NCBI GenBank assembly: GCA_964543705.1
Contig: CAZIZP010000006.1
Location: 16-64,015, forward strand
Origin: an uncultured Chitinophagaceae bacterium
Lineage (GTDB): Bacteria > Bacteroidota > Bacteroidia > Chitinophagales > CAIOSU01
Length of the DNA stretch: 64,000 nucleotides
Reading direction: 5' to 3'
A program made the translations under genes and the position numbers. Shown here one piece after another: positions 18,352 through 61,329 of this stretch; the first letter of the stretch is position 1, and each line of letters starts with the position of its first letter. The notes beneath the pieces are model-generated. The model saw nothing but the letters and a program-made list of their open reading frames with translations. It was not told the origin of the DNA and did not search any database.

Positions 18352-18464
18352 CTATGAACATGATTCACAAATATCTAAAAAAACTAATGATTAGTTCCGT
18401 TCATCTTCTTAAAAAAATGAACTTAGTTTAGTATTATTTGTATGTATTGCTGAAATTTGTGTTT

Positions 18465-19490
18465 ATGTATATCACCAATCAATGGTATTTAGTTGCGCTT
18501 GAAGATGAATTGCTGAAGCAAAATCCGCTGGGTAAAAAAATACTGGGGCAAGAGGTTGTAATATTTAAAACCGAATCGGGAAAAATTCAGGTAATAGAGA
18601 ATCGTTGTTGCCACCGCAATGTAGCTTTATCTATGGGCTATGTAAAAGACGAAGCTATAAAGTGCGCTTATCATGGCTGGGAATTTGACGGCACAGGTAA
18701 ATGTGTGAATATTCCTTCGCTGCAAGATAAAAGCCAGATACCTGCTTCGGCCTGTGTAAAAAAATATGAGGTAAAAATTTACAACCACATGATATGGGCC
18801 TTTTTTGGTGAAGCCTCAAAAGCACATGAAGTAGCGTTGCCTCCCATGCCCGAAATGGGGCAGTTTCCTTATGTGTTTAATTACCATGTGGTAAAAGCCG
18901 ATTTGAAATTAGTTGCAGAAAGTTTAATAGACCCTTATCATATAGACCATGTGCATCGCAACAGTATTAAAACTTTTATGGGCAACCTGAACCGCGCCAG
19001 TGTTGAGTTTAACATTGAAATGGATGGCACGGCCATGACAGGCTCGTATATGCGCGAAAACACCGGCAACTTTTTTGAGAAATTTTATTTTGGTTTTGCC
19101 CCTGAAATCAAAACCAATTTTGCCTTTTACTTTCCGCATACATCAAAGTTGCATATTGCTTTTAAGGAAAAGAATATGTTTATCTACGAGCACTTCTACC
19201 CTATTGAAGATGATAAAATAATGATGCTGCAAATTACCTGCTGGCAAGGCATTTTCAGGCGATTCCCCATGTGGTTTGCCAAAAAAATGATGCTCGATAA
19301 ATCGAATAAAATTGTTGAAGAAGATATAGATTTTTTAGAGTGCAACAAGCGTTATCACGACACACAAAAACTACACGATTTATTAATTAAAGCCGATAAG
19401 GTTTCTATAGAGTTTGCCAAACTATGGCGCACCAATGTAGAGAAAATGAAAAGTAAAACCGAAGCCGTTGCCGCTGAAACAGAACTGTAG
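18465..19490 (+). CDS. Rieske [2Fe-2S] non-heme-iron oxygenase (PaO/ring-hydroxylating alpha-subunit-like)
   Basis: Rieske motif CCHRNVALS...CAYHGWEFD. Downstream DPYHIDHVH looks like a mononuclear Fe site. The track start (TTG 18438) was replaced by ATG MYITNQWY. Confidence 0.8.
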   Translation: MYITNQWYLVALEDELLKQNPLGKKILGQEVVIFKTESGKIQVIENRCCHRNVALSMGYVKDEAIKCAYHGWEFDGTGKCVNIPSLQDKSQIPASACVKKYEVKIYNHMIWAFFGEASKAHEVALPPMPEMGQFPYVFNYHVVKADLKLVAESLIDPYHIDHVHRNSIKTFMGNLNRASVEFNIEMDGTAMTGSYMRENTGNFFEKFYFGFAPEIKTNFAFYFPHTSKLHIAFKEKNMFIYEHFYPIEDDKIMMLQITCWQGIFRRFPMWFAKKMMLDKSNKIVEEDIDFLECNKRYHDTQKLHDLLIKADKVSIEFAKLWRTNVEKMKSKTEAVAAETEL

Positions 19491-19581
19491 CTTCAGGCTT
19501 TAGTACATTCACAACATTTGGGTGGGTAAGTATTTTTAAAATTCATTATTCAACAATACACTAAAGTTATTTTTGTAGCAC

Positions 19582-21636
19582 GTGAATTCCATCAGCACAT
19601 ATCGCCCGGCTGCATTAATTGCATTGGTGTTTAGTATAGGCAGTTTTTTATCGGTAATATTTCAAATACTATATCGCTCGCTTGAAATTGCACCTATACC
19701 TTCGGGTATAGACCACGTAATTTTACAAATTACCATTATTTCTTTTTTAGGCAGCACACTGGCTTTTGCCCATTACTGGCTCGATAATAATAAAAATGAA
19801 GCTCCCTGGGCTATCATAGTAAGAAAAGGTTCGCTGGCAGCGGGCGTGTCATTTATTCTAATTCCCGAATACATTTATATTTTTTACCCCAAGCAACTGG
19901 CTTTTGCAGCTTATACCCAATTGTATTTATTTCTTCAGGTTTTCATTTTACAGTTATACCTATCGTTGTTTATTTTTCATTTCAGAAAATTTTTGCCTGC
20001 CAATTTAATTGGCTTAAAAAGAATAGTATGGAAAATGTATATGGTGCTTTTGGTTCTGGCAGTGTTCAGCAATTTTACCAAAGATTATGTGCCCTATTTT
20101 TTCAGGGTTTTTCATGTAACACTCGCATTTGTTTTTGCTGTGTATTTAAGCATAAACATGAAGTGGATGGTAGATATTCCTGTTTCTAAAAGACTATCAA
20201 CTATACTATGGTTATTGTTTATCAGCTGTATTCATCTTTTTCTGGTTTATCATTATTACAATGAAGAATCGCACGGATTTTTTAATGTATTAAGCCTGCC
20301 AACCGAATATTATTTATTACTGCTTTTTATTCCGGCAACATTCAGCATAACAGCCCTGTTTGCCAATATATTTTATTTACCACTGGCAAAAGTGGTAGAT
20401 AGAAAAGAAAATGAAATTCGCAGCCTTACTCAAATGAGTAAGTTTATTCAAAAGAAAGAAAACTTAGATGGTGTTTTTAATTTTCTGCTGAATAATTGTG
20501 TAAACGATACTGAAGCCAATGCCGGTTGGATTTTACTGCAAGACAACGAACAAAAAGAAACCCTGAAAAGCAAAAATATTAATATAGACCGTGCTATGGC
20601 TATCAGCCAGGCTTTTCTTTCAGACTATGCAGAACAATTAAGACTGTTGCAATATGTAAGCATTTTAAATACTGAAAATGCCAAGCCTGAAATTAAAAAT
20701 ATAGGCAACTATAAATCGTTGCTGGTATGTAATATAGAACTGCACAAAGGCGAATCGGGTAAATTGTTTTTGATAAACGAAGAAGAAGAAAGTTTTGACG
20801 ACCAAAGTATAGAAATGGTGCGCTCTTATATAGACCAGGCACGTATTGCTTATGAAAATCAGCGGCTGTTTTCAGAAAGTGTAAAATCGGAAAGTGTGAA
20901 GCGTGAACTGGAAGTGGCTTCGCAAATACATAAAAGCCTGTTGCCTGCAAAATTTCCGCAATACAGCAGTTATGAAATAGTTGCCCACATGGAAACCTCT
21001 AAAGAACTGGGTGGCGATTTTTACGACTTTTTTCATTTAGATGAAAACCGGCTGGCATTAATTATAGGCGATGTATCGGGTAAAGGAATGCCGGCTGCCC
21101 TGTATATGGCCGAAATAAAAGGTATTTTCAACTCGCTGGCACAATTTGATTTATCGCCCGAAGAAATAATTTTAAAAGCCAACGAAACGATTTCTAAATG
21201 CTTTGATAAAAGCCATTTTGTTACCCTTATCTATTTGGTAATAGATGTTAAGCATCGTAAGTTTTATTACCTGCGCTGTGGCCACTGCCCTATTCTTTAT
21301 TACGATTTTACAGTAAATAAAACCGATTACTTTAACGATTCGGGAATTGGCCTAGGCATTATCAGAAGTTCGCAGTATAGCAATCATATTCGCTTATATG
21401 AGCGCGAGTTTCATACTAATGATTTACTTGTACTTTATACCGATGGTTTAATAGAAGCAACCGATAAAAAAACTAAAAAAAGTTTCGGTTTAAAAGAGCT
21501 GAAACTGGCCTTGGAAACAGCACGTAAGTTAAATGCCGAAGAAGCACTGAAAGATGTTTTAAACGAATTTAAAATTACTATCAGCATTCAGGAAAACCCC
21601 GATGATTTAGCGCTGATAGTAATTAAATTCTTGTAA
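19582..21636 (+). CDS. Multi-pass membrane protein with C-terminal PP2C/SpoIIE-type Ser/Thr phosphatase domain
   Basis: 684 aa. About 8 hydrophobic helices in the N-terminal half. C-terminal GGDFYDFF...IGDVSGKGMPAALYMA...LYTDGLIEA is SpoIIE/RsbU-like. GTG start. A TATTTTTG box about 6 nt upstream leaves the start or leader uncertain. Confidence 0.8.
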   Translation: MNSISTYRPAALIALVFSIGSFLSVIFQILYRSLEIAPIPSGIDHVILQITIISFLGSTLAFAHYWLDNNKNEAPWAIIVRKGSLAAGVSFILIPEYIYIFYPKQLAFAAYTQLYLFLQVFILQLYLSLFIFHFRKFLPANLIGLKRIVWKMYMVLLVLAVFSNFTKDYVPYFFRVFHVTLAFVFAVYLSINMKWMVDIPVSKRLSTILWLLFISCIHLFLVYHYYNEESHGFFNVLSLPTEYYLLLLFIPATFSITALFANIFYLPLAKVVDRKENEIRSLTQMSKFIQKKENLDGVFNFLLNNCVNDTEANAGWILLQDNEQKETLKSKNINIDRAMAISQAFLSDYAEQLRLLQYVSILNTENAKPEIKNIGNYKSLLVCNIELHKGESGKLFLINEEEESFDDQSIEMVRSYIDQARIAYENQRLFSESVKSESVKRELEVASQIHKSLLPAKFPQYSSYEIVAHMETSKELGGDFYDFFHLDENRLALIIGDVSGKGMPAALYMAEIKGIFNSLAQFDLSPEEIILKANETISKCFDKSHFVTLIYLVIDVKHRKFYYLRCGHCPILYYDFTVNKTDYFNDSGIGLGIIRSSQYSNHIRLYEREFHTNDLLVLYTDGLIEATDKKTKKSFGLKELKLALETARKLNAEEALKDVLNEFKITISIQENPDDLALIVIKFL

Positions 21637-21649
21637 GCTGTTACTGCAT

Positions 21650-24619
21650 TTATCTTAACAAGGTTACGCTTCCTGTTAAAGTTTGAATATTCAGGTCGGT
21701 GGTAACAAACTTTAAATAATATACATACACGCCCTGTTCCTGTTCTTTACCTTTAAAGGTGCCATCCCAAATTTGTGTTGGGTCTTTCGTTTCAAATACT
21801 TTTTGTCCCCAACGATTGTGTATGGTTAAATAAAACTCTTTAAACGAGCCACCATAAATCTGAAACAAATCGTTTTCGCCATCGCCATTGGGCGAAAAAG
21901 CATTTGGAATAAACACCGGTACTTCAGGGCTGGTGTTTATAGTTACTGAATCTTGCGCTTCACAGCCAAATTCATTGGTATAAACAAGCGTTACTATTGT
22001 GGTATCGTCAACTCTTACTGTAGGGCTTTCGCAATCTGTACAACTTAAAACATCTTCAGGCTGCCACGAATAGCTTACATTACCGCTTGCCGCTGGGCTA
22101 ATTACTGGTGTAATTTGAATACCGCTTCCACGGTTTACTGTGGTATCATTGCCTAAATCTACAGTTGAAGGCGAGCCATAAACAATATTTACGGTATCGC
22201 TTGCCAAACAGCCATTGGCATCGGTAACTACTACTACATAACTGCCTGAAGTATCAGCAGAAAGTGTTTGTGTGGTATCGCCTGTATTCCATTGATAACT
22301 TACAAAACTGCTTCCTGCATCTAGGGTAACTAAGATGTCTTCGCAAACAATAATATCGTTACCAAGATTTACCGGTGTAGCGGCAATTTCATTTACCGTA
22401 AATGTAGCTGTTCCGGTGCAAGTGGCATCAGCAGCTGTTACACTGTAAGTGCCCGCTTGTGTTACAGTAATAGAATCATTGGTGCTGTTATCACTCCAGG
22501 TATAAGTAGTGCCTCCTGTAGCGGTAAGTACTGTGCTTGTGCCGCTACAAAAATCTGCATTACCATCTATAGTTACTACAAGGCTCGAAGTTTCGGTAAC
22601 TACTGCAGAAGCTGTTCCGATGCATCCGTTGGCATCGGTAGCCGTAACATCATAGCTGCCCTGTGTAACAGTTATAGCGGCCGTTGCATCGCCTGTATTC
22701 CACAAATAAGTATCGCCACCACTTGCAGTTAAGGTAGTGTTGCCGCCTATGCAGTAATTCAACAAACCATTAATGCTAATTACAGGCAGTGCATTTTCGA
22801 TAACTGTAGCATCGGCTGTGGCTGTGCAGCCATTGGCATCTGTTCCGGTTACGGTGTAGTTGCCTTGTGTAACCGTAACAGCAGCAGTTGCATCGCTGGT
22901 ACTCCACAAATAACTGTTGCCTCCGCTTGCGGTAAGGGTGGTATTGCTTCCTGCGCAATAACTCAAGGTGCCATTAATTGCAATAGCAGGGGCAGCACTT
23001 TCTGTTACACTGGCAGAAGCTGTTCCGGTGCAGCCGTTGGCATCGGTAGCGGTAACGGTGTAGTTGCCCTGTGTAACGGTAATGGCAGCCGTAGTGCTGT
23101 TGCCGGTATCGTTCCATACATAGCTGTTACCCCCGCTTGCAGTAAGCGTGGTGTTACCGCCCGGGCAGTAACTTAAATTTCCTGCAATATTCACGGTTAA
23201 GCTGGTAAGTTCTGTTACGGTTGCGGTTGCCGTGTCGGCACAACCGTTGGCAGCAGTAACCAATACCACATAACCACCTTGTGTAACGGTTACGCTGGCT
23301 GTATTGCCAATATTATTTCCGCCTAAATCGAACCAGGCATAGTTGCCCCCGCCACTGGCAGTAAGGGTAGTGTTGCTTCCGGTGCAATAGGTTAAATTGC
23401 CGCTGATAGCAGCAGTAGGCGCGGTAAGTTGTGCATCGTTGCTGAAAGCGTTGCTTGTGCCCGAATCGCAGTTGCCATCGCTGGCAATAACGGTATAGTT
23501 GGTTCCGGGTGTAGTGCCGCTGATTACCCCCCCTGCACCTGCTGTGGGGCCTGCGGGCGAAAAAATATAAGTAAGCGATGCATTATAATTGGTAATAGTG
23601 CTGCTGCCTGCTGCTGTGCAGCTTGCCGCAACAGTAGTAATGGTAGGTATTGCCGGAGGGGCAGTTTGCGCTGCATTGCTGAAAGCAGCACTTGCCGGAG
23701 AATCGCAACCATTTTCTCTTGCAATAACGGTATAGCTGGTTCCGGTAGTCATGCCGTTTATAGCACCACCTGCGGCTACTGTAGGCCCTGCGGGCGTAAA
23801 CACATAAGTTACGTTTGCATTGTAATTGCTAATAGCACTGCTGCCTGCTGCTGTGCATGTGGGTGGGGTTGATCCTATGGTTGGGGTAGGCGGTAAAACC
23901 ACCGGACCACCATAAGTAATTAAAATGCCCCCTGCAGCGCCACGGCCACCATTGCTATCGCCACCGCCTGCACCGCCACCACCATATACCGCACCGGGAT
24001 TATTAGTACTGGCACCACCTGCACCGCCATTAGGCCCTGCCGCTGAACCACCGGCACCGCCACTGCCCCCGCTGCCATTGTTTCCAGCCCCACCGGTTGT
24101 ATTGGTAGTGCCGCCACTTGCAGTTCCACCGGCACCACCTGAACCGGTGCCTCCACACGACTCCCCTTCTCTTCCTCTTTGTCCGCCATTCGCTACTAAA
24201 TTGATAGGATTACCTCCTGAATCTGTACCTGTAAACGTAGTGTTTCCTCCGTTAGAACCCGGGTCGCCATCGCTTAAATCTGAACCGTTTCCGCCACCAC
24301 AACCCCCTGAACCAATGGTGTAAGTAAAAGTAGCTCCGGGCGTAACAGGAAAAGTTCTGGTAGCAAAGCCACCGGCACCGCCACCGCCACCACCTCTGGT
24401 GTTACAAATACCACCACCACTACCACCGCCACCACCACCGGCACCACCGCCACCGCCATATACTTCAACAGTAATAGAAGTTACACCACAGGGTACCGTC
24501 CAAGTGCCCGATGCGGCTGCGGCATTACAGTTGGCAGCACCGTTTAAGGTTTCATCTTGTGCGGTGGCATTAAAAAAACTGAATAATACAAATAGCAGAA
24601 TAGTAATAAGTGCTTTCAT
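21650..24619 (-). CDS. T9SS type B (CHU_C / gliding-motility-associated C-terminal domain) surface protein with N-terminal glycine-rich domain and Ig-like repeats
   Basis: 989 aa. Signal peptide MKALITILLFVLFSFFNATAQ. GTWTVPCGVTSITVEVYGGGGGAGGGG...GILITYG glycine-rich domain. 2 x about 85-aa and 6 x about 70-aa repeats (LTASGGNSY.W...ITVTQGNYTVTATDANGC). C-terminal IPNAFSPNGDGENDLF...NRWGQKVF...WDGTFKG...GVYVYY is a type B sorting domain. Confidence 0.9.
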   Translation of the reverse strand: MKALITILLFVLFSFFNATAQDETLNGAANCNAAAASGTWTVPCGVTSITVEVYGGGGGAGGGGGGSGGGICNTRGGGGGGAGGFATRTFPVTPGATFTYTIGSGGCGGGNGSDLSDGDPGSNGGNTTFTGTDSGGNPINLVANGGQRGREGESCGGTGSGGAGGTASGGTTNTTGGAGNNGSGGSGGAGGSAAGPNGGAGGASTNNPGAVYGGGGAGGGDSNGGRGAAGGILITYGGPVVLPPTPTIGSTPPTCTAAGSSAISNYNANVTYVFTPAGPTVAAGGAINGMTTGTSYTVIARENGCDSPASAAFSNAAQTAPPAIPTITTVAASCTAAGSSTITNYNASLTYIFSPAGPTAGAGGVISGTTPGTNYTVIASDGNCDSGTSNAFSNDAQLTAPTAAISGNLTYCTGSNTTLTASGGGNYAWFDLGGNNIGNTASVTVTQGGYVVLVTAANGCADTATATVTELTSLTVNIAGNLSYCPGGNTTLTASGGNSYVWNDTGNSTTAAITVTQGNYTVTATDANGCTGTASASVTESAAPAIAINGTLSYCAGSNTTLTASGGNSYLWSTSDATAAVTVTQGNYTVTGTDANGCTATADATVIENALPVISINGLLNYCIGGNTTLTASGGDTYLWNTGDATAAITVTQGSYDVTATDANGCIGTASAVVTETSSLVVTIDGNADFCSGTSTVLTATGGTTYTWSDNSTNDSITVTQAGTYSVTAADATCTGTATFTVNEIAATPVNLGNDIIVCEDILVTLDAGSSFVSYQWNTGDTTQTLSADTSGSYVVVVTDANGCLASDTVNIVYGSPSTVDLGNDTTVNRGSGIQITPVISPAASGNVSYSWQPEDVLSCTDCESPTVRVDDTTIVTLVYTNEFGCEAQDSVTINTSPEVPVFIPNAFSPNGDGENDLFQIYGGSFKEFYLTIHNRWGQKVFETKDPTQIWDGTFKGKEQEQGVYVYYLKFVTTDLNIQTLTGSVTLLR

Positions 24620-24888
24620 AACTGGGTTTATGGTTGATTATTGCAGCAGTTTTTATTTCAGGATAAAGAATGAAAATTAAAACCTGCTGTTTTTTTACAC
24701 GGCACTAAAAATACTTAATACTAATGAAAATTTCAGCTTAGAGTTTTAATATCCTTTAAACCATAAAGCACCTAACAGGCTTTCTTTAACATGCGCTTAA
24801 CAATATACTGAACCTGATAAATAGCCATAAACTGTTTTTCAGCAAGCTAATAATGGTATTTTTTATTCATTACAGGTAATTGTAATTG

Positions 24889-25075
24889 TTTGGCATTTAG
24901 ATGTTAGCTGTTAGTTTTATGTTTTAAGTTATCAGTTATCAGTTTTTGGTAGAGCCTTTAGCCTTTAGCTATTAGCCTTTAGTTTTCAGGAAAGCCAAGT
25001 CCCCCTTTGAAGGGGGCAGGGGGATGATTTTTGAGTTTTGAATTTCGATTTTTGAATTTGTTTAGGATTTAGCTT
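24889..25075. repeat. Composite heptad-phased low-complexity element (TTWTCAG/TTAGCCT heptads, GC hairpin CCCCCTTTGAAGGGGG, ANTTTTG heptads)
   Basis: Read directly. About 14 in-phase 7-mers lie at 24889-24990. A hairpin lies at about 25001-25016. ATTTTTG AGTTTTG AATTTCG ATTTTTG AATTTGT lies at 25027-25061. The element is homologous in inverted orientation to 49501-49690. Confidence 0.8.
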
Positions 25076-25128
25076 TCCTGTTAAAATACTTCCCGTTATA
25101 GGGCTTTTAGTATGGCAAAAGGTGGCGA

Positions 25129-25156
25129 TTTGTTAAAAATGAAATAAGTATATTTT
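25129..25156 (+). promoter_or_regulatory. Promoter-like TTTG-N16-TATATTTT inside the conserved leader, pointing into 42-bp array A
   Basis: Resembles the Bacteroidota -33 TTTG / -7 TAnnTTTG, with the last base T not G and the spacer shorter than the reported optimum. The same motif, spacing and downstream ATG (19 nt) recur at locus B. Confidence 0.35.
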
Positions 25157-25187
25157 AAGTAAGACTTACAGAACCATGCTATCGCTA

Positions 25188-25302
25188 CTCCAACTTTGGA
25201 TATGCCCTTCCAGACGTCTGAAACCCCGACTCCAACTTTGGATATGCTCTTCCAGAGGTCTGAACCCCCGACTCCAATTTTGGATATGCTCTTCCACGAG
25301 TG
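25188..25302. repeat. 42-bp tandem array A (about 2.7 copies), reverse complement of array B
   Basis: Units CTCCAACTTTGGATATGCYCTTCCAGACGTCTGAAACCCCGA. The conserved leader at 25078-25187 is about 90 percent identical by eye to the reverse complement of 47846-47952. Confidence 0.9.
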
Positions 25303-25615
25303 TGAAACTGCATTACGAATTATTAGATAAGTGAAACACGAAAAAGGAAAGGCACCGGCAACAAGCGTATTGGCCCTAAATGCTACATACTTTGCTATGG
25401 TATGTTTTTTTAACATAACTACTTGCTGAAAAGAGGCTATGGAAAAAATTGCATTTCAAATATAACAATTAAAACTATGTAAAAAGAAAATTTTTGCGCT
25501 GAAGCTAACCTGGTGGCGATTGCCGGGCTGTATGTATTCCATGCTGCAAAGGTGCAATTGGCATGGCTACTCGCATAATGAAATTATGAACTATAAAAGG
25601 AGGATAGTATTTTCA

Positions 25616-26267
25616 CAGTCTGCCGTTATGGGCAAGGCTAAAAACCCAGAGACAAAATCAAAACATCAGACAAAGTATTAATGACTGACAGAATTTTCAT
25701 AGAAGACCAGGATTTAGTTGAAAGAATGCTAAATAGATTAACACCTCTAAACGAAAGTTCAGGATGGCAGTGTGAACTTTTTATCGACAAAACGACCAAT
25801 CAAAAATGGGAAAAATATCTTTTTGAATTGTTTGACACTGATGATGATGGAATAGGATTAAGACGTTATCCATATCCTTCAACCAAAGAAATAATTAGAA
25901 TCGCTTTGACTTCAAAATATTTTGATGAAATAGACGGAGCTTGTGGTTTGCTGCTTGATATGGAATTTGACAAAATTGAGTTTAGAGATATGCTACTCTC
26001 TGAAATTGAAAAAATTATAAATGACATTAATGAAGACCGATTTGAAATTATATACAACAGAGCAGAATTGTATGACACATTAAACAAGAGAGAGATATTA
26101 GGAAAACATTATAAAGAAATCGAAAAAGACGCAGAATATTTCAAAGAATTAATGACTAAAGCTGAGAAACTAAGACAGAGAATTAAACAAAACGAGAAAA
26201 ACTAATAGAAAACAATGACCTTGAAGACAGAAAGAAAACAAAGCCCAGCCCATAACAGCCGTAACTG
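25616..26267. repeat. Imperfect about 24-26 bp inverted repeats bracketing the 174-aa ORF (cassette-like unit)
   Basis: The left arm is CAGTCTGCCGTTATGGGCAAGGCT (25616-25639). The reverse complement of the right arm is CAGTTACGGCTGTTATGGGCTGGGCT (26242-26267). The core is GCYGTTATGGGC..GGCT. The interior is AT-rich. Confidence 0.5.
25681..26205 (+). CDS. Hypothetical cytoplasmic acidic protein (possibly immunity-protein-like; unassigned)
   Basis: 174 aa with no signal peptide. A sampled line gives about 28 percent G+C versus about 42 percent in pckA. No motif recognised. Confidence 0.55.
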   Translation: MTDRIFIEDQDLVERMLNRLTPLNESSGWQCELFIDKTTNQKWEKYLFELFDTDDDGIGLRRYPYPSTKEIIRIALTSKYFDEIDGACGLLLDMEFDKIEFRDMLLSEIEKIINDINEDRFEIIYNRAELYDTLNKREILGKHYKEIEKDAEYFKELMTKAEKLRQRIKQNEKN

Positions 26268-26366
26268 TTGCACAACTCTCTAAAAGAAGAGAATGGAGAT
26301 AAAAACGGCTTCATTAAAAGCATTTTTAGCGCAGTTGTAATGTAAGCTACCCTAAAGCTAAGTTTA

Positions 26367-27296
26367 CTAATTCAAATACCTTGGCGATTTCAGGAAGGTA
26401 GATTTGGGTTTTATGCCGCCAAATCTTCCTATTAAGGTAAGCTCGTGAGAGCCGCTTTGGTTGGTGCTTAACTCGCCAAAGTCGAAATCGTAAGAGTAGC
26501 TCACCATGAATTTCCCGAAGTGAACGCCTAATAACATACCTACATCATCGGTAGTTCTGTAAAACGTACCTACGGTTACCCGCTTATTGAAGGTAGCATT
26601 AATGGCAATATCGGCCTGGGTAATAAAGGCACTGCTTCTAACAAAAACGGCAGGCTGCAACATGGTTTTTTCGCTTACATTCCAGTTGTATTTAGCATAG
26701 CCAAAGTAGTGGCGCGGCACTCTGAAAACGGTTGCTTTTTTCAGCGATTGGTCCAGGTGGGTAATAGAGGCCCCTAATACCAAACCTTTACCCGAAAATT
26801 CGAGCCCTAAACCCACATCGGGCTTCATATTATTTTCAAAAGCATTCAAAGCACTCTGGTCGCCACCATCCTGAAAAATTAAATCGTTGCCTCTCACCGC
26901 ACGGTTCAGTATGCCTAAGCTAATACCACCCGAAAGGTACACATCATCGCCCACGCGCTGGCGGTAGGCATAAGATAAACGGGCAGCTACCGAGCGCTCG
27001 TTGCCCAGGCGGTCGTTTACCAATACCATACCTATACCGCCTTTAATTTTAGGTATATAGCCATAGGCATTGAGCAATTGGGTAGAAGGCGCACCTTTAA
27101 AGCCAATCCACTGCTGGCGGGCCAGCAAGCCCACGTTAATGGTTTTGGTATTGCCTGCGTTGGCAGGGTTATAAACATGTTCGTGATACATGAAATGATT
27201 AATCATGGGGTCGTTTTGTGCTACGGTGGCAGTAGCAGCCATTACAACGGTGGTAATTGATAAAATCAGTTTTTTCAATGGGCTTAGGTTTATCAT
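26367..27296 (-). CDS. Type IX secretion system membrane protein PorP/SprF family
   Basis: 309 aa. Signal peptide then QNDPMINHFMYHEHVYNPANAG...ARQQWIGFKGAPSTQ, the hallmark N-terminal PorP/SprF motif. It is the last gene of a type-B adhesin operon. Confidence 0.88.
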   Translation of the reverse strand: MINLSPLKKLILSITTVVMAATATVAQNDPMINHFMYHEHVYNPANAGNTKTINVGLLARQQWIGFKGAPSTQLLNAYGYIPKIKGGIGMVLVNDRLGNERSVAARLSYAYRQRVGDDVYLSGGISLGILNRAVRGNDLIFQDGGDQSALNAFENNMKPDVGLGLEFSGKGLVLGASITHLDQSLKKATVFRVPRHYFGYAKYNWNVSEKTMLQPAVFVRSSAFITQADIAINATFNKRVTVGTFYRTTDDVGMLLGVHFGKFMVSYSYDFDFGELSTNQSGSHELTLIGRFGGIKPKSTFLKSPRYLN

Positions 27297-27326
27297 TGTA
27301 TCGTTATTTAAGCTTTTCGTTAGTTA

Positions 27327-29213
27327 TTAGTTGTTTATTACTCTGAAAGTAGTTCTTCGGTTTAGCTGATGCTCGTCTTCGGTTTTAGCACCTTTTACTA
27401 CCGGCTGAGAAGAGCCCCACCCTTTAAATGAAAGGCGCGTAGGGTTAATACCTTTCGATACTAAATATTCTACCACCGATTTTGCACGGTTTTCAGAAAG
27501 CTGCTGGTTATAAGAAGGCTTACCTCTTTCATCGGTATGAGAGTTTAACTGAATATTAGCTTCCGGGGTATCTTCCAGCAGTTTCACCAGCTTATCTAAA
27601 TTAGGTTTCGATTCATCTCTTAAAACAAAGCTGTTATAGTCGTAATAAATATCATCAATCTTAATTTCTTCTTTCGGTATTCTCTTTATGCTGAAATCGT
27701 AGTTGTGGCCGTTGGCTTTTGAAAACTCTTTTGAAAACATTTCGCCCTGGGTGGTTAGCTTTTTAGAATCGCCAAAATAGCCGGGGTTGTTTACATTTAT
27801 CTTGTAGTCTTTGTTTTTAGCTAACTTAAATTCATACTCGCCTTTATCGTTGGTATAGGTGGTATCGGTTTCGCCATCGGTAGTGGTAAGCACTACCATT
27901 GCACCTTTTAAAGGGGTGTTGCCATCTACATCGTTTACTTTTCCTTTTACAATTAAATTAATGGGGGTAAGAAAGAAGGTATATAAATCATCGGCACCTG
28001 CACCACCTGTTCTGTTAGATGAAAAATAACCTTCGCTTTTATCGGCAGCGGTAAATACCATATGAAAATCATCGGCACTGCTGTTAAAAGGTGCTTTCAT
28101 GTTTACAGGCTTAGTCCAGTTGCCATCTCTTTTTACAGTATAAAACAGGTCGAGCCCGCCAAAACCATTATGACCTTCAGAAGAAAAATACAATACCGTA
28201 TCCTGAAAAATTATAGGAAACATTTCATCAAATTCGGTATTGATAACTGAACCCAGATTGGTGGGTTGTTCCCACTGCAAGCCGCGCTTCACCATGGTCC
28301 AAATATCGCTGTTGCCACTGCCGCCTTCCATTTTGCTTACAAAATACAGGGTTTGTCCATCGGCAGAAATAGAAGGGTGCCAGATATCTGCCTTTTGGGT
28401 AATGGTAGTGTAAAGCGCTTTAGGTGCCGACCATACATTGTTATCGTCTAAGATGCTTTCATAAATAGTACATAATTCATCTTTACCGCTTTTGCCATTG
28501 CATTGGGTAAAGTAGGCGGCTTTTGTTTTTTCACAGTAAGTAAAAGAACCATCGTTAAAAGGCGTGTTTAGCGCATCTATTTTTACGGGTTTGTTCCAAA
28601 CTTTGTCTTTAATATTATAAGAGGTTTCATAAAAATCAGAAAAGCCTTGCCCATCGAAAGTATAGGTGTTTGCTTCTTCTTTATTCTCAATTCTTGATGA
28701 GGTAAATACCACTTTGCTCTTTACAGGTACCATGCCATAGTCGCTGTATGCAGTATTCAGCGATGCAATATTCTGAACCGTATAAATAGAAGGCTGTTCG
28801 GTTGCGTTTTGTGCATATTTGGCATTGTCTAACATACGCAGGGCGTCTTTATCATTAGGCTGAACCGCCAAGAACTCGTTCAGCTTGTTTTGTGCATCGG
28901 CATATTTGCCCTGCTGCATATAAATTTTAGCCGTTTGAAATAGCAGGTTAGGCTGTTCATAGCCTTCGCTTTTAGCACGGTTATACCATTCTAAAGCATT
29001 ATCGTATTGCCCCGTGTAGCGGTAACACTCTGCTATCTTAAAAGTAATTTCGTTGCGGTCTTTCACTTTTCCCTGAAGCACTTTCTGAAAACCTTCTAAA
29101 GCAACAGTATATTGTCTGTTATCGAAAGCTTCGTTGGCTAATTCCAGTCGCGTTTGAGCAAAAATGAAAGTTGCAGAAAACAGTAAAACAACTAAAACAA
29201 ATATTTTTCTCAT
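27327..29213 (-). CDS. OmpA-family protein with N-terminal TPR and PD40/TolB-like beta-propeller repeats
   Basis: 628 aa. TPR-like N-terminus. C-terminal OmpA motif NSHTDERGKPSYNQQLSENRAKSVVEYLVSKGI...GWGSSQPV. This is the typical partner of PorP/SprF in gliding-type operons. Confidence 0.88.
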   Translation of the reverse strand: MRKIFVLVVLLFSATFIFAQTRLELANEAFDNRQYTVALEGFQKVLQGKVKDRNEITFKIAECYRYTGQYDNALEWYNRAKSEGYEQPNLLFQTAKIYMQQGKYADAQNKLNEFLAVQPNDKDALRMLDNAKYAQNATEQPSIYTVQNIASLNTAYSDYGMVPVKSKVVFTSSRIENKEEANTYTFDGQGFSDFYETSYNIKDKVWNKPVKIDALNTPFNDGSFTYCEKTKAAYFTQCNGKSGKDELCTIYESILDDNNVWSAPKALYTTITQKADIWHPSISADGQTLYFVSKMEGGSGNSDIWTMVKRGLQWEQPTNLGSVINTEFDEMFPIIFQDTVLYFSSEGHNGFGGLDLFYTVKRDGNWTKPVNMKAPFNSSADDFHMVFTAADKSEGYFSSNRTGGAGADDLYTFFLTPINLIVKGKVNDVDGNTPLKGAMVVLTTTDGETDTTYTNDKGEYEFKLAKNKDYKINVNNPGYFGDSKKLTTQGEMFSKEFSKANGHNYDFSIKRIPKEEIKIDDIYYDYNSFVLRDESKPNLDKLVKLLEDTPEANIQLNSHTDERGKPSYNQQLSENRAKSVVEYLVSKGINPTRLSFKGWGSSQPVVKGAKTEDEHQLNRRTTFRVINN

Positions 29214-29228
29214 GGTTTATGTTGGTGG

Positions 29229-32200
29229 TTAGTCTTGAATTAATAATACGGTTCCTTTAATAATATTTTCTCGTTCGGTAATATTTTGCAAAGTAAGAAT
29301 GTAGAAGTAAGTACCCGGTGAAACTTCTTTACCATCGAAAGTTCCGTCCCAGCCGTCAACACCACGATACAATTCCTGTCCCCAGCGGTTTAATACTACC
29401 AGGTCATAACCTTTTAAGAAAAGGTCGTTTCTGCCATCGCCATTAGGGGTAAAGGCATTGGGGAAGTCTCTTACGTTTACCACTACCGCTACCGGTTCGC
29501 CTACACACTCGCCTTGTGTAGCTACCACCGAAACCGAATCGCCATTTACCAGCTTGCTGGAAGCAAATGTGTTTTCAGGGCCGCTTTGAATACTGTTTCC
29601 GTTTACAAAAAACTCATAATTATCGTAGCTGCCCGGCAAAGCCGTAAATGTAATGGCCTCGCTTGGGAATACGGCATTGTTTTCTCTGTCGCTCGTTAGT
29701 GTTACTTCAGGTAATGGCAATACTTCTATTGTTGCAACAGTTCTTCCACTAACATTAGCACAGCCATTACTGCCTTCAGCCTGAACATAAATGGTGGTGT
29801 TTTCAGTAAGGCTGCCTGTATTGTAAGTGCTGCCTGTACCTAAAAGGGTGCCACCGGTAGCAGTACTCCACCACGTAATCGTAGTTCCTGCAGGGGTAGC
29901 CGATGCTGACAAGGTAGCCGATTCACCAAAACACACTTCATTTCCTTCAGCAACCACAGCAGCCGAAGGGGCAGCTTTAACATTTACTGTAACAGGAACT
30001 CTTCCTCCCGAATTTCTGCAACCAAAATCGTTTACTACCTCTAAATAATAGGTGGTGGTAGTTACAGGCGAAACCGTAAGCGGACTGTTGCCCAAAAAGT
30101 TTCCACCGGTAGCAGCATCGAAAAAGTTGTAAGATATATTGCCCGAACCTGACCCAGTGGCTGTAATGGTAGTGCTTTCGCCTTCACAAATATCATCGTT
30201 GCTAATATTTACTAAAGGCGCATTCGGTGCCGGATTTACAGTTACTTCTATAGTTTGTGGCGCAGAATTTCCGCAGGTATTAGAAGCAATTACACTTACT
30301 GTATAAGTTCCGGGTGTATTCCACTGTATGCTTGCGGTATTGCTTCCCTGCCCATCAACAATACTGCCGCCACCCGAAACACTCCAGGTATATCCGGTGG
30401 CGTTAGGAACATCATTTACCAAATAAACATTAATATCCGGGCAAGCATTAACAGTGCCGTTTATCTGCCCCGGTGTAGCAGGTTCCGCAGGTAAAATGGT
30501 AATGCTTAATGTTGAAGCACTGCTGGTACCACAATCGTTTGAAGCTGTTACCGAAATAGTGTAGCTGCCACTTGCACCTGTCCAATCTATAGTAATGCTG
30601 TTAGTACCTTGTCCTTGTGTAATGGTGCCACCTCCCGAAATAGTCCAGTCATAAGAAGTTGCCCCCGCTACTACAGGCACGGTGTAATTCTGGCTTCCGC
30701 TACATACCGTGTTTTGTCCGTTAATTGTTCCGGGTGTTGCCGGTACACCATCTTTAACTGTAACCTGAATTACCGATGGGTTGCTGCTGGCACAAGTGCT
30801 GTTAGCCACTACCGAAACTGTGTAAGGGCCACCTGAGGCAGTCCAGTTAACCGTTATAGATTCAGTACCTTGCCCTTGTGTAATAGTGCCACCACCTGAA
30901 ACAGTCCAGGTGTAATCTACCGCACCTTGCACCGGCTGAATACTATATGTGGCAGTTCCCGGGCATAACTCATCATCGCCTGAAATGTTACCCGGTAATA
31001 AAGGCACCCCTTGTTGCACATCAATATTTAAAGTAGTGGCTGCACTTGCTCCGCAAATATTTTCTGCAACTACTGATAAGGTATATGGGCCACCTGAAGT
31101 AGTCCAGTCAATAGCAATTTGTGTAGTGCCTTGTCCTGAGGTAATAGTACCTCCGCCACTTAATGTCCAGGTATAATTGCTTGCACCTGTAACATTCGCA
31201 ATAGAATAGTTTGAAATACCCGGACATGGATTGTTATTGCCTGCTATTGCAGCAGGTGTTGCAGGTGCACCATTTAACAAGGTAACATTTAAGGTTGCTG
31301 CCTGTGTACTTCCACAAACATTATTGGCTGTTACGGATATAGTAGCATTGCCTGAAGTTGCACTCCAATCTATTTCTATTGAGGTAGTGCCTTGCCCCGA
31401 AATAATAGTGCCGCCATTGCTCACACTCCAGGTATAGTCAGAAGCATTATTGGCCCCGCCCACACTATAAACTTCAGTACCCGGACAAACAGTGGTTGCT
31501 CCACTAATAGCCCCTAAACCATTAGGTGCATTCGGAATTACTTCTACCTGTAAAGTTTGTGGCGCACTGTTTCCGCAGGCATTATTAGCCACTACTGAAA
31601 CGGTGTAAACACCCCCACTAATCCAGTTAATAGTAGCATTAGCAGTTCCTTGCCCGGCTGTTACAGTGCCGCCCCCTGAAACACTCCAGCTATAACCCGT
31701 AGCCCCCTGAACAGGCTGAACAGCATATTGTTGCGAACCTAAACACACCGGACTATTACCAATAATGGGGTTGGGAGTTGCAGGAGGGCCTTGTTGCACA
31801 TTTACAGTAGTAGAACTTGATGCAGTGCCACAAGAATTGGTAGCTTCTACCGATACGGTATATGGGCCACCGGTGGTAGTCCATGTTACCGTAGCTGATG
31901 CGCCATTACCTGAAATAGTTCCACCGCCAGACACACTCCAGTTGTAAGTGGTGGCTCCGCTAACAGTTACGGTATAAGTTTCAGCAACGGGGCAGGGAAA
32001 ATTGTTTCCTGTAACGCCTACGGTAACTGTAGGAGGCCCTTGTTGCACCGTAACGGGATAAGTACCTGTAACACTTCCGCAGCTATTACTTGCTACTACT
32101 GAAATGGTATGGTTACCTGCCGAAGTCCAGTTGATGGTAGCATTGGCAGTACCCTGACCACCTGTAACTGAGCCGCCACCCGAAACACTCCAGGTATAGG

Positions 32201-34040
32201 CCGTAGCATTAGTTGCAGTTACCGTATAGTTTTGCGAAGAGGGACATGGGTTGTTATTTCCTGCTATGGTAGCCTGTGTTGGTGCAGCAGGATTAACTGT
32301 TACCGTTACAGAAGTTCTGGCGCTTACGCAACCCGGATTGGCATTATCATCTGCTTCTACCCAATAGGTAGTGGTAGTGGTTGGAGAAACCGGTCTTGGC
32401 GTAGTACCAATAGAAGTTCCACCGGTTTGTTGTGTATATACACGATAAGTAACATTGCTTCCGCCTGAAGCATTAATGGTTACTGAAGTACCGGGGCAAA
32501 CAGGATTATTGTTAGAAAGTGTAACTGTTGGAGCAGGTGGAGGAGTGCAGGCTATAGTTCGGCAAACTACACTCACTCCGGGCGTAGGCACAGTTATTAC
32601 AGGCGTAAAACTACCATTGGTTACTGTATTAGAATTCCAGTTATTATAAAAAGGATCGGCATAGGAATAAGAAGGCCCATTGTTGGAGACTGTAATGTTA
32701 GCAGCGGGGCAATCAACCGGTGCATTTCCTGCTGAATCGGCTTTTACAATTTGCATATCGAAATTGGTACCACCAGCTCCTAAGGTTGCGCTAATAAAAC
32801 CTTTATCGGCTGCTGCACTACCGTTTGGAAGCAGGGTGAATAAACCTAAATCGTATGATTTAGCAAAAACTACACTATTATTACTTGGATTAACTTTTAT
32901 AATTGCCTGACCCACTTGAAAAGCCAGAGGGTTAACATATTGCCCAATAGCAGCATAATTGCCATCGTAAGTTTCAAAAAAGTTATTTATTAATGCTGTA
33001 GCCAACAATCCTGTTGAGTACCTCCTTATCCATGTTGGATTTGACCAGCCACCTGAAGCAGGTAAACGCATAAACAACATACTGGTGCCATCATCACCCG
33101 CTAATATTGGCAGACCTGCTGCGGTTTTTTTAATAGAATATAATCGTTTGCTCGATGCAGAAGCTGAAGTATTGGGTGCATCAATTTGTCTATGATAGGT
33201 AATAGCACCTGCTGTAGTCGTTTTCAGAAATAGTGCATCGTTTGAAGTCGCATCATCACCATCAGAATTTGTATTGGAAAGAAAATCATTTACATCATAA
33301 CTGCCTACCGCAATGTAGCCATCATTAACTTCTACCACATCAGTAAAGGAAGCATCATTATAAATTCTGTCAGCAGGTGCTTTTCCTGAATTTTTATAAT
33401 ATCGTGTAACATGGTGCCATACATGATTTCCGTTGGCATCAAACTTCACGATTAAGGGTGAGCCTATTCTCTCTGTCTCACTACCATCTGCATTAGTATA
33501 GGTTATAGTGCTAAATTTAATTTCAGGACCGGCACCATCGGGATCGTAGCCTGTAACATAACCTACAGCCACATAGCCGCCATCATTTGCTTTAATAATT
33601 CTGTTAAAATATGCTCCATCAGCCTGTGAAATGGAAAAGTTTCTGGAAACAACAGGTGTTCCGTTAGCATCTAAAACCATAATAAATGCCGCACTCGACT
33701 CTGTTCCGCCACAGGCATAATAAGTATTGGAAGCTACATCTCGTTTCAAATCATTTATTTGCATAGATATGCTGCTGGTATATCGTCTGCTCCATACCAG
33801 ATTACCGGCACTGTTTACTTCAGTAATGGTAGCTGTAATAGGAATAATATTGGTATTCCAACCGGTGAGAATATAATTTCCGTTTGTGAGTGCATCGCCA
33901 GCGGTGGCAGCAAAATCAAAATTATTGAAATCGTAATTTACTCTGAATGTAGTTTGTTGTGCCTTTATATTTTCATAGGAAAACATCAGCACAAAAAATG
34001 CAACTGTAAATAAGCCTTTTATAAAACACTTGTTGGTCAT
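29229..34040 (-). CDS. Giant T9SS type B adhesin-like protein (about 480-aa beta-propeller-like head, about 10 PKD-like Ig repeats, CHU_C sorting domain)
   Basis: 1603 aa with a signal peptide. About 80-aa repeats (NPCPG..YSV..V.GAT.YTWSVSGGGTI.SGQGT..I.I.W...G.YT.SV.A.N.CG.S). C-terminal FPNAFTPNGDGRNDLF...LNRWGQELY...WDGTFDGKEVSPGTYFYIL. Confidence 0.9.
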   Translation of the reverse strand: MTNKCFIKGLFTVAFFVLMFSYENIKAQQTTFRVNYDFNNFDFAATAGDALTNGNYILTGWNTNIIPITATITEVNSAGNLVWSRRYTSSISMQINDLKRDVASNTYYACGGTESSAAFIMVLDANGTPVVSRNFSISQADGAYFNRIIKANDGGYVAVGYVTGYDPDGAGPEIKFSTITYTNADGSETERIGSPLIVKFDANGNHVWHHVTRYYKNSGKAPADRIYNDASFTDVVEVNDGYIAVGSYDVNDFLSNTNSDGDDATSNDALFLKTTTAGAITYHRQIDAPNTSASASSKRLYSIKKTAAGLPILAGDDGTSMLFMRLPASGGWSNPTWIRRYSTGLLATALINNFFETYDGNYAAIGQYVNPLAFQVGQAIIKVNPSNNSVVFAKSYDLGLFTLLPNGSAAADKGFISATLGAGGTNFDMQIVKADSAGNAPVDCPAANITVSNNGPSYSYADPFYNNWNSNTVTNGSFTPVITVPTPGVSVVCRTIACTPPPAPTVTLSNNNPVCPGTSVTINASGGSNVTYRVYTQQTGGTSIGTTPRPVSPTTTTTYWVEADDNANPGCVSARTSVTVTVNPAAPTQATIAGNNNPCPSSQNYTVTATNATAYTWSVSGGGSVTGGQGTANATINWTSAGNHTISVVASNSCGSVTGTYPVTVQQGPPTVTVGVTGNNFPCPVAETYTVTVSGATTYNWSVSGGGTISGNGASATVTWTTTGGPYTVSVEATNSCGTASSSTTVNVQQGPPATPNPIIGNSPVCLGSQQYAVQPVQGATGYSWSVSGGGTVTAGQGTANATINWISGGVYTVSVVANNACGNSAPQTLQVEVIPNAPNGLGAISGATTVCPGTEVYSVGGANNASDYTWSVSNGGTIISGQGTTSIEIDWSATSGNATISVTANNVCGSTQAATLNVTLLNGAPATPAAIAGNNNPCPGISNYSIANVTGASNYTWTLSGGGTITSGQGTTQIAIDWTTSGGPYTLSVVAENICGASAATTLNIDVQQGVPLLPGNISGDDELCPGTATYSIQPVQGAVDYTWTVSGGGTITQGQGTESITVNWTASGGPYTVSVVANSTCASSNPSVIQVTVKDGVPATPGTINGQNTVCSGSQNYTVPVVAGATSYDWTISGGGTITQGQGTNSITIDWTGASGSYTISVTASNDCGTSSASTLSITILPAEPATPGQINGTVNACPDINVYLVNDVPNATGYTWSVSGGGSIVDGQGSNTASIQWNTPGTYTVSVIASNTCGNSAPQTIEVTVNPAPNAPLVNISNDDICEGESTTITATGSGSGNISYNFFDAATGGNFLGNSPLTVSPVTTTTYYLEVVNDFGCRNSGGRVPVTVNVKAAPSAAVVAEGNEVCFGESATLSASATPAGTTITWWSTATGGTLLGTGSTYNTGSLTENTTIYVQAEGSNGCANVSGRTVATIEVLPLPEVTLTSDRENNAVFPSEAITFTALPGSYDNYEFFVNGNSIQSGPENTFASSKLVNGDSVSVVATQGECVGEPVAVVVNVRDFPNAFTPNGDGRNDLFLKGYDLVVLNRWGQELYRGVDGWDGTFDGKEVSPGTYFYILTLQNITERENIIKGTVLLIQD

Positions 34041-34136
34041 ATCAGCACTTTAGATTTTTAAAAATGAAGTCTGAAAATAGTGTTTTATTCGATAATTTAA
34101 CAATAGTTTTATTTGTAGCTAACAACTTGTTGAACT

Positions 34137-47350: not shown

Positions 47351-47441
47351 TCTGAAGAGTTTATTTGCGATTTTCTCATTAGTACTTTAGCGAACGCTGT
47401 AATCAAGTGGAGATGATTTTGCAAGTTATAAAAATTGCTGC

Positions 47442-47507
47442 TTCATTAATCGTTCCAAGTGACCGCAGGCACGCACTATGCTACGTGCGAACACTTGGAA
47501 GAACAGG
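47442..47507 (+). repeat. 65-bp hairpin repeat element, copy H1
   Basis: TTCATTAATCG-TTCCAAGTG-(30 nt with inner GCACG/CGTGC stem)-CACTTGGAA-GAACAGG. The outer stem is 9 bp and perfect. It abuts array B. Confidence 0.75.
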
Positions 47508-47516
47508 GCTCGTTCC

Positions 47517-47845
47517 GCACTCGTGAAAGAGCATATCCAAAGTTGGAGTCGGGGCTCCAGACGTCTGGAATGGCATATCCAAAGTTGGAGTCGGGGGTTC
47601 AGACGTCTGGAAGAGCATATCCAAAGTTGGAGTCGGGGTTTCAGACGTCTGGAAGGGCATATCCAAAGTTGGAGTCGGGGTTTCAGACGTCTGGAAGAGC
47701 ATATCCAAAGTTGGAGTCGGGATTTCAGACGCCTGGAAGGGCATATCCAAAGTTGGAGTCGGGGTTTCAGACGTCTGGAAGGGCATATCCAAAGTTGGAG
47801 TCGGGGTTTCAGACGTCTGGAAGAGCATATCCAAAATTGGAGTAA
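47517..47845. repeat. 42-bp tandem array B (about 7.5 copies, no spacers); each unit holds two palindromes
   Basis: Unit starts at 47531, 47573, 47615, 47657, 47699, 47741, 47783 and 47825 give a period of exactly 42. The unit is GCATATCCAAAGTTGGAGTCGGGGTTTCAGACGTCTGGAAGR. It contains the perfect 12-bp palindrome CCAGACGTCTGG and TCCAA-AG-TTGGA. Confidence 0.95.
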
Positions 47846-47873
47846 CGATAGCATGGCTCTGTAAGTCTTACCT

Positions 47874-47901
47874 AAAATATACTTTTTCCATTTTTAACAA
47901 A
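47874..47901 (-). promoter_or_regulatory. Promoter-like TTTG-N16-TATATTTT in leader B, pointing (minus strand) into array B
   Basis: The motif, the spacing and the 19-nt distance to the conserved ATG (47852-47854) match locus A. Confidence 0.35.
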
Positions 47902-47968
47902 TCGCCACCATTTGCCACATTATAAACCCTATAACGGGAAGTATTTTAACAGGTAAAAGACTTGCTTT

Positions 47969-48033
47969 TTCATTAAGCCTTCCAAGTCGCCCCAGCTCAG
48001 CACAAGGCTATGCGGGAACCTTGGAAGAACAGG
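47969..48033 (+). repeat. 65-bp hairpin repeat element, copy H2
   Basis: TTCATTAAGC-CTTCCAAG-TCGCCCCAGC...CTATGCGGGAAC-CTTGGAAG-AACAGG. It shares its flanks with H1 and its core with the reverse complement of H3. Confidence 0.75.
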
Positions 48034-48056
48034 AACTTAATATTACTGTATTTAGC

Positions 48057-48090
48057 AAAAAAAACGAGCAATATTATTTGCTCGTTTTTC
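48057..48090 (-). terminator. Rho-independent (bidirectional-looking) terminator after the MORN/YwqK-like gene
   Basis: AAAAAAAA-CGAGCAA-TATTAT-TTGCTCG-TTTTTC: a 7-bp stem with A-run and T-run flanks, about 100 nt downstream of the stop at 48184. Confidence 0.7.
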
Positions 48091-61323: not shown

Positions 61324-61329
61324 TTAAAG

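Follow-up and report, generated by a model that had tools for sequence, protein, structure and literature searches.

Does a leader sequence followed by tandem 42-bp units, found twice and in inverted orientation in one stretch of DNA, constitute a discrete genetic element, a gene, or a duplicated repeat module without a dedicated role? The question is raised by the window analyzed here, i.e., 64,000 nucleotides of contig CAZIZP010000006.1 from an uncultured Chitinophagaceae bacterium, in which, once the unit register is set, the first copy (locus A) spans 25077-25308 (232 bp) and the second copy (locus B) 47512-47953 (442 bp). A first-pass annotation made from the sequence alone had interpreted the two copies as a discrete genetic element. 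The reading favoured here, with confidence somewhat better than even, is that of a lineage-specific, non-coding intergenic module, consisting of a unique leader of ~88 nt and a 42-bp minisatellite, which is part of a ~420-bp block together with a heptamer-repeat region, is present twice in inverted orientation in accessory DNA, and would have arisen by recombinational duplication followed by slippage-driven change of array length.

Two inverted copies of a leader and a tandem array

A complementary-arm comparison within the window paired 25074-25307 (+) with 47723-47956 (-) over 234 nt at 91% identity, which bears out the inverted homology of leader plus array that had been noticed by eye. The doubt attached to that observation, namely that the similarity might be restricted to the 42-bp units, was removed by the formal alignment of the leader alone (117 nt at 90.6%, leader A against 47840-47956 (-)), which is significant by itself. 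Tandem Repeats Finder (period 42, 90-94% matches) detected 2.9 copies of the unit at 25187-25308 and 7.5 at 47527-47843, both numbers being derived from one metagenome-assembled contig, as independent Logan assemblies break at the flanking repeats; the unequal unit numbers initially described were thereby reproduced. Moreover, a 25-nt pattern representing the unit occurs 11 times in the window as compared to 0 expected. By register, the arrays start at 25165 (A) and 47865 (B) with a degenerate unit that carries an ATG, and their last unit is a degenerate partial one of 18 nt, CTTCCACGAGTGTGAAAC or CTTTCACGAGTGCGGAAC. The promoter-like box TTTG-N16-TATATTTT is present in both leaders, at 25129-25156 (+) and 47874-47901 (-), and the ATG follows it after 19 nt in both copies (25176 and 47854), as the first-pass annotation had stated, opening reading frames (ORFs) of 52 and 142 codons. 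Spacer-less head-to-tail 42-bp units, degenerate edges and a locus-specific copy number are the properties of a minisatellite or variable-number tandem repeat (VNTR). Judged from these alignments, the second copy is real and the two copies are true paralogues; the structure is a duplicated, structured module rather than random low complexity. Neither the window nor ~200 kb of fetched loci contained a third copy of the leader, and ~17 kb of flank beyond the window contained no module copies in addition to the two within it.

The extent of the duplication differs from what had been claimed. On the array side, where a sharp stop after CACGAGTG was reported, the homology continues for ~8 nt, to GAAAC (25308) and GGAAC (47512). 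On the leader side, the collinear homology does end at CCTGTT as reported, but 190 bp located 5' of leader A (24890-25084) recur at 49492-49690 with 82-89% identity, whereas locus B carries an additional 1,535 bp (47957-49491) that separate this heptamer block from the leader. The duplicated unit therefore comprises heptamer block, leader and array, and measures ~420 bp instead of the 233 bp originally assumed. The leader-side boundary, as read from the sequence comparison, is an insertion/deletion difference within a larger duplicated block and no element end. The divergence is alike across the duplicated parts (91%, 89% and 82%, with the leader alone at 90.6%), which fits a single duplication event.

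The block that precedes leader A and the corresponding copy at 49492-49690 are of the same type as the TAACTGA heptamer regions reported for Bacteroidetes, which are intergenic, are oriented towards the downstream ORF, are mixed with other heptamers, are absent from close relatives and are a frequent cause of contig ends (MacGregor, 2015, PMC4679880). The likeness is limited to this neighbouring block and does not include the leader or the 42-bp array, and the published regions were not described with an attached minisatellite. TAACTGA-type blocks were observed at 24890-25060, 49492-49690 and 61323-61598 of the window as well as at ~3000-3470 of L026 and ~17070-17590 of L027, two contigs of relatives, in each case intergenic and facing downstream genes; in relatives, similar heptamers also flank a PF05635 (23S rRNA intervening-sequence protein) gene. 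Heptamer block A contains a bidirectional terminator-like hairpin at 25001-25023 (CCCCCTTTGAAGGGGG), for which an 85% match is present at 20765-20804 of L007, intergenic in that relative.

Genomic setting and comparison with relatives

The window, which is chromosomal DNA of an uncultured member of the Bacteroidota, contains many genes for type IX secretion cargo proteins (Por_Secre_tail, CHU_C), along with a PorP/SprF operon and genes for PEPCK, DprA and glycosyltransferases. Its topoisomerase IV subunit B shares at most 79-80% identity with organism-named proteins (metagenome-assembled genomes labelled Chitinophagales or Cytophagales), and identical proteins are found, besides one 155,240-bp NCBI contig, on Logan assemblies of runs SRR14492177-200. 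The gene next to locus A, described initially as encoding a glycine-rich adhesin, was identified as that of a Gly_rich_2/CHU_C type IX secretion cargo protein (21650-24619 (-)).

Contigs of relatives were obtained via protein-cluster members. At the site of locus B, L026 and L027 (81-92% nucleotide identity) carry a 408-aa gene that is followed by a 593-aa gene after only 156-163 bp, and their homology to the window ends at 47350/47372 and restarts at 49723/49718. At locus A, L028 matches 18411-24895 collinearly before switching to PEPCK, while L007 is collinear with 26356-37287 and then continues with unrelated genes. Since the synteny with L028 ends at 24895 and that with L007 starts at 26356, the segment 24896-26355 is strain-specific and lies exactly at the breakpoint. 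The module is thus missing from the orthologous sites in L026, L027, L028 and L007, but as part of larger blocks and not as a precise element. In ~100 kb of relatives' sequence neither the leader, nor the 42-bp unit, nor the hairpin repeat described below was detected; the heptamer repeats alone recur there. This absence fits DNA of an accessory or mobile kind better than a regulatory region under conservation. As the blocks also hold the hairpin repeat, an integron-type cassette and other accessory items, both loci are sinks for accessory DNA; two hotspots are hereby marked at which this genome gathers such DNA, i.e., heptamer repeats, hairpin repeats, a MORN gene and the cassette (Table 1).

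Synteny breakpoints with respect to these relatives (81-92% identical) were found at ~18.4, ~24.9, ~26.4 and ~41.7 kb. In L027, a Rieske gene is joined to a 2-oxoacid dehydrogenase gene in inverted order, and in L028 the upstream region of the adhesin gene is joined to PEPCK. The two inverted copies, 22 kb apart, could mediate inversions in a region which is visibly rearranged as compared to relatives.

Table 1. Positions of the module, its parts and accompanying features in the window.
Feature	Position	Strand	Remarks
Strain-specific block A	24896-26355		Heptamers, leader A, array A, 315-bp spacer, 640-bp integron-type cassette 25623-26262; at synteny breakpoint
Heptamer-repeat block A, TAACTGA-type direct repeats	24896-25076	-	Reads towards adhesin gene; Tandem Repeats Finder 24913-25059; homologous to 49492-49690; L028 homology ends 24895
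Leader A, unique sequence, start CCTGTTAAAATAC	25077-25164	+	90.6% to leader B region
Promoter-like box A, TTTG-N16-TATATTTT	25129-25156	+	Resembles Bacteroidota -33/-7 motif
Degenerate first unit A, with ATG 25176	25165-25206	+	74% identical to unit 25207-25248; ORF 25176-25334
Two full 42-bp units A	25207-25290	+	Each with dyads CAGAC/GTCTG and TCCAA-nn-TTGGA, 21 bp apart
Terminal partial degenerate unit (tail) A, CTTCCACGAGTGTGAAAC	25291-25308	+	End of homology with locus B
Strain-specific block B	47351-49722		2,372 bp inserted between 408-aa and 593-aa genes
Hairpin repeat H2	47430-47507	-	Abuts array B end
Array B	47512-47865	-	Degenerate first unit 47824-47865 (ATG 47854), seven full units 47530-47823, 18-nt tail 47512-47529
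Leader B, box at 47874-47901	47866-47953	-	Leader alignment and box scan
Hairpin repeat H1	47954-48033	-	~80 nt
Locus-B-only segment	47957-49491		H1, terminator 48060-48089, MORN_2 gene 48184-49044 (-), H3
Hairpin repeat H3	49197-49274	+	Inverted relative to H1
Heptamer-repeat block B	49492-49690	+	Reads towards 593-aa cargo gene at 49814

Rarity, known systems and the favoured explanation

The unit pattern was searched in 185,579 species genomes, which gave one match, due to chance, in a GC-rich coding region, and in JGI metagenomes, which gave none. Plasmids and phages yielded nothing by distant blastn, and three pattern scans of viral contigs yielded nothing relevant, the single match (L033) being an Arg/Ser-rich giant-virus gene. 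A metagenome match to a 20-mer of the leader (L030) was rejected as chance, as it lies in coding DNA. In addition, a 22-nt exact match to the leader (AAAATACTTCCCGTTATAGGGC) was observed at 15-36 of L029 (Ga0105048_10008395), starting right after the position of CCTGTT; it is 15 nt from the contig end in a different AT-rich organism (GC 34.5%), and with ~1 such match expected it is indistinguishable from chance, so that it may represent either a remote relative or a coincidence.

Among known systems, the architecture is closest to BrickBuilt of Porphyromonas gingivalis, a module of leader, minisatellite and tail (Klein et al., 2015, PMC4596501). Both occur in the same phylum, are strictly intergenic, combine a leader with spacer-less tandem repeats and a tail, and have a limited host range; both vary in unit number (1 to 22.8 in BrickBuilt), possess promoter-like leader elements and are often located beside type IX secretion cargo genes. 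However, BrickBuilt has 23-nt units, 12-nt terminal inverted repeats (TIRs) like those of IS5-family elements and 19 copies per genome, whereas the module described here has 42-bp units, an 18-nt tail and two copies seen, is devoid of TIRs or target duplication, and shows no sequence similarity to BrickBuilt. Arrays of clustered regularly interspaced short palindromic repeats (CRISPR) likewise consist of an AT-rich leader followed by direct repeats, but the units here are contiguous without spacers, and none of the scanned ORFs of the window contained a Cas domain. Mycobacterial interspersed repetitive units (MIRUs) are intergenic tandem units of 40-100 bp with degenerate edge units, whose copy number differs by locus and strain via slippage; they are located within operons and carry small overlapping ORFs. 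The arrays resemble such VNTRs in their intergenic position, variable copy number and degenerate edges, but differ in that they are paired with a conserved unique leader and were duplicated in a larger block.

We propose that the ~420-bp block was copied via recombination or repair at rearrangement-prone intergenic sites, without involvement of a transposase, and that replication slippage or unequal exchange subsequently let the arrays drift in length (2.9 as compared to 7.5 units). Slippage may be favoured by the pair of short palindromes that each unit contains. Degenerate edge units together with homogeneous internal units are expected of an array grown by slippage. The module would have no dedicated cellular function, and promoter activity of the leader, if any, would be incidental.

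Several observations weigh against this explanation. Neither the box nor the ATG 19 nt downstream differs between the copies, despite 9% divergence of the leader. The 42-bp unit is non-random, with two 5+5 dyads at a centre spacing of 21 bp that only 0.02% of shuffled sequences attained (post hoc), and a 42-bp array on an unrelated GC-rich contig (L032) has ACGT-centred dyads at the same spacing, which hints at constraint on the dyads. Finally, the copies were counted over 64 kb and ~17 kb of flanks only.

Promoter box and a possible RNA gene

The conservation of the box could be explained if the leader were the promoter of a stand-alone small RNA gene, from which the array would be transcribed into a repeat RNA, possibly a multi-site sponge for an RNA-binding protein or RNA; we regard this as unlikely, although it survives better than the other alternatives. 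The box lies at the same distance from the first unit in both copies, the terminator-like hairpin in heptamer block A would shield leader A from upstream transcription, array B has no downstream gene on its own strand and would thus have to be a stand-alone unit, and the leaders of BrickBuilt show promoter activity (PMC4596501). However, the pattern TTTG-N15-20-TAnnTTTT is present at chance frequency in the window (13 matches as compared to 9.2 expected) and the strict TAnnTTTG consensus is not enriched (2 found as compared to 5.6 expected), which is why the conservation of the box is no evidence of function. A terminator scan revealed no terminator shared by the two copies, and the module is missing in relatives. 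Rfam gave no match at gathering score; at E<=1, nothing was found for locus A and sub-threshold matches only over locus B, which we take to be chance. The fold z-scores of -8.4 and -7.3 for the two strands of locus B, with -1.9 and -1.4 for locus A, are uninformative, since on either strand the palindromes of one tandem unit pair with those of another, and the hairpins within each unit have just 3-4 bp.

Paired dyads in the 42-bp unit

Each full unit contains two dyads, CAGAC/GTCTG and TCCAA-ct-TTGGA, the second of which differs by a single G-to-T change from the perfect palindrome TCCAACGTTGGA, and their centres are exactly 21 bp apart. This distance is half a unit and corresponds to two helical turns, while 42 bp correspond to four. 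Among composition-matched shuffles, two dyads occurred in 0.65% (p = 0.0065) and the 21-bp spacing in 0.02% (p about 0.0002), in a test that was post hoc. The arrays might therefore be phased sets of operator-like sites, with the dyads TCCAGACGTCTGA and TCCAACTTTGGA two helical turns apart, such that a predicted dimeric DNA-binding protein would coat one face of the helix and the array would serve as decoy, roadblock or centromere-like scaffold; we consider this slightly more doubtful than the RNA gene. The dyads reach to their centre, with a spacer of 0-2 nt, and this suits dimeric proteins more than RNA hairpins. A precedent exists in sopC of the F plasmid, whose 12 tandem 43-bp units each harbour an inverted repeat of 16 bp to which SopB binds (PMC3177203). 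The module shares with sopC the spacer-less tandem units of about this length and a short inverted repeat in each of them, but sopC is located on a plasmid beside sopAB, whereas the module has two dyads per unit, some of them imperfect, and is chromosomal among housekeeping genes. No partition (parA/parB), replication or small DNA-binding gene adjoins either copy, the neighbours being genes for type IX cargo, MORN, PorP and DprA, and there was no plasmid match. Furthermore, stand-alone copies of either dyad were not found elsewhere in the 64-kb window, and in several units the first dyad is disrupted by substitutions (CAGGCGTCTG, CAGAGGTCTG).

The same lattice is displayed by the array on L032, a GC-rich contig, where ~22 tandem 42-bp units with the consensus TTTCCGGACGTCAGGGAACGCCTCGCCAACGTTGTCGGAGCA are located at 800-1755 between two-component signalling genes. 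In these units, the dyads GACGTC and AACGTT are spaced by exactly 21 bp, and 20-26 of 42 positions are identical in phase to the unit of the window. By our own count, the identities concentrate at positions conserved among the diverged L032 units (15 of 19, as compared to 10 of the 23 variable ones); L032 was, however, picked by a similarity search that favoured exactly these motifs. No similarity of the leader was detected between L032 and the window, and the translation of the L032 array has a single relative in 5.8 billion clusters, i.e., no protein family. A sister contig of L032 (protein P0070) carries far fewer units. We regard L032 as an unproven parallel to the window array. Both L032 and the 4.5-kb contig L031 were reached through weak matches of the exhaustive protein search described below; L031, which consists solely of a 44-bp satellite, is unrelated and was taken as chance.

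Going one step further, the unit might be a deliberately phased lattice in which ACGT-centred palindromes of 14 bp and 12 bp (TCCA-GACGTC-TGrA and TCCA-ACkT-TGGA) alternate every 21 bp as a scaffold for a putative dimeric protein or as an RNA sponge, and could represent a new cross-phylum class of dyad-lattice minisatellites with L032, whose array agrees in period, dyad cores and spacing, as the sole other candidate; this is more doubtful again than a phased array as such. Should the dyad lattice prove to act as a binding platform or as a repeat RNA, a phylum with a poorly known non-coding repertoire would gain a new regulatory or structural element. The dyads may reflect protein binding, a slippage bias promoted by hairpins, or chance.

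Coding potential

Five of the six frames of the unit are open, the closed one having TGA in every unit, and the ATG is conserved 19 nt past the box, which could point to a small repeat protein or a multi-core peptide precursor, encoded either in the ATG frame (MLSLLQLWICPSRRLKPR..., 52 aa at locus A and 142 aa at locus B) or in the reverse frame ((GRAYPKLESGFQTS)n). We consider such a peptide very improbable. Five open frames in a 42-bp unit are expected by chance ~12% of the time according to our estimate. The nine variant sites in the full units are 2 synonymous and 7 non-synonymous in the ATG frame, and the C-termini of the two copies in this frame are unrelated read-through. In the reverse GRAYPKLESGFQTS frame, they are 5 synonymous and 4 non-synonymous, which favours coding but is not significant after correction for six frames, and this frame lacks a conserved start. 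No protein family matched the array frames, a word-indexed protein search with all five open frames joined returned nothing, and an exhaustive search of 1.84 billion representatives with the five frames returned the window's own gene call and weak repeat-on-repeat matches, whose E-values are inflated by periodicity. The proteins P0046/P0068, P0047 and P0056 correspond to arrays with periods of 14 or 7 residues, and their peptides include FRTSG, FRISG or PKL motifs similar to those of the window unit. With respect to ribosomally synthesized and post-translationally modified peptides, neither array adjoins a gene for a radical SAM, ATP-grasp or peptidase protein and no modifying enzymes or transporters are nearby, so that a multi-core precursor is not indicated. 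The coding signal is thus lacking, and the peptide-coding reading is largely refuted. The sole database entry is a 106-aa reverse-strand gene call at 25096-25416 (-) that overlaps leader A as well as array A. It is the only member of its cluster and almost certainly represents a spurious ORF arising from the open frames of the repeat; the module thereby explains this call, which is of value for annotation.

Transposition or assembly artefact

The hallmarks of a transposon are lacking. Compared by eye, the left end CCTGTTAAAATACTTCC and the reverse-complemented right ends GTTTCACACTCGTGG (A) and GTTCCGCACTCGTGA (B) have only GTT in common, and no inverted-repeat pair joins the ends of either copy beyond GTT...AAC. 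No target-site duplication was found in the flanks, which read ...TAGCTTT / TGCATTAC... at locus A and ...GTCTTTTA / GAGCCCTG... at locus B, nor any transposase or recombinase among the window ORFs scanned. With neither TIRs nor a target-site duplication, the module is not one of the miniature inverted-repeat transposable elements (MITEs). The inverted orientation of the copies, with leaders outward and arrays inward, the fact that several transposase-binding repeats are common at transposon ends, and TGTT within the left end could suggest that the copies are the TIRs of a 22.9-kb composite mobile element (25077-47953), or that each copy is a MITE. We regard both as highly improbable: the interior contains housekeeping genes (DprA, SPFH, PorP operon) without a transposase and relatives show synteny on either side of locus B, only the 2.4-kb block being extra, so that a composite transposon is excluded by gene content and synteny. 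Of the discrete element proposed at the outset, the structured, duplicated module in accessory DNA stands, while sharp boundaries and self-containment do not.

That the repeat was duplicated or chimerically joined during metagenome assembly is scarcely credible, since the copies differ at ~9% of positions and in their flanks, whereas a collapsed or duplicated repeat would be identical, and since independent assemblies confirm the flanking genes up to the repeat edges, even though the window is part of a single metagenome-assembled contig of 155 kb, the neighbouring repeats are points at which Logan assemblies of the same samples break, and unit counts from short-read assemblies are unreliable.

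Other items in the accessory blocks

The ~80-nt hairpin repeat (CCTGTTCTTCCAAG ... CTTGGAAG ... TTAATGAA) is present in three copies, in which the inner stem varies in sequence yet still pairs. It is probably multicopy in the genome, because independent Logan contigs end inside it. A relationship of this repeat to the unit or the leader was discarded on the basis of local alignment (p = 0.23-0.98). Both leaders as well as the three hairpin repeats start with CCTGTT; the interpretation of this hexamer as a target duplication works for H1 alone and fails for H2, H3 and locus A. The MORN_2-repeat gene (48184-49044 (-)) is bracketed by inverted hairpin repeats and is not found at the same site in relatives, and it looks like an inserted accessory gene.

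The 640-bp single-ORF cassette (25623-26262, 174 aa) in block A shares 97% identity with its counterparts in seven unrelated contigs, Gelidibacter japonicus among them, and 89% with that in a Chryseobacterium (loci compared: L013-L020), and its ORF has no Pfam match. L014 carries the cassette as the third member of an integron-type array, whose inter-cassette sites of ~130 nt form attC-like imperfect hairpins (cores GCCCATAAC ... GTTATGGGC). The z-scores of the attC-like folds are -1.8, -2.6 and -5.4 in L014 and -0.3 in the window, where the cassette is solitary, lacks a full attC and has no integrase visible in the window. No attC-like fold follows either 42-bp array, which are hence not integron gene cassettes themselves. 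An origin of the leader from an attC site, considered in view of the resemblance of CCGTTATAGGG to the cassette core GTTATGGGC and the recurrence of GGTGGCGATT at 25512, was dropped because such lengths match by chance. Farther from the blocks, 29229-34040 and 34137-38918 are adjacent paralogous CHU_C/Ig_7/PKD adhesin genes of ~1,600 aa with many internal repeats of ~261 bp.

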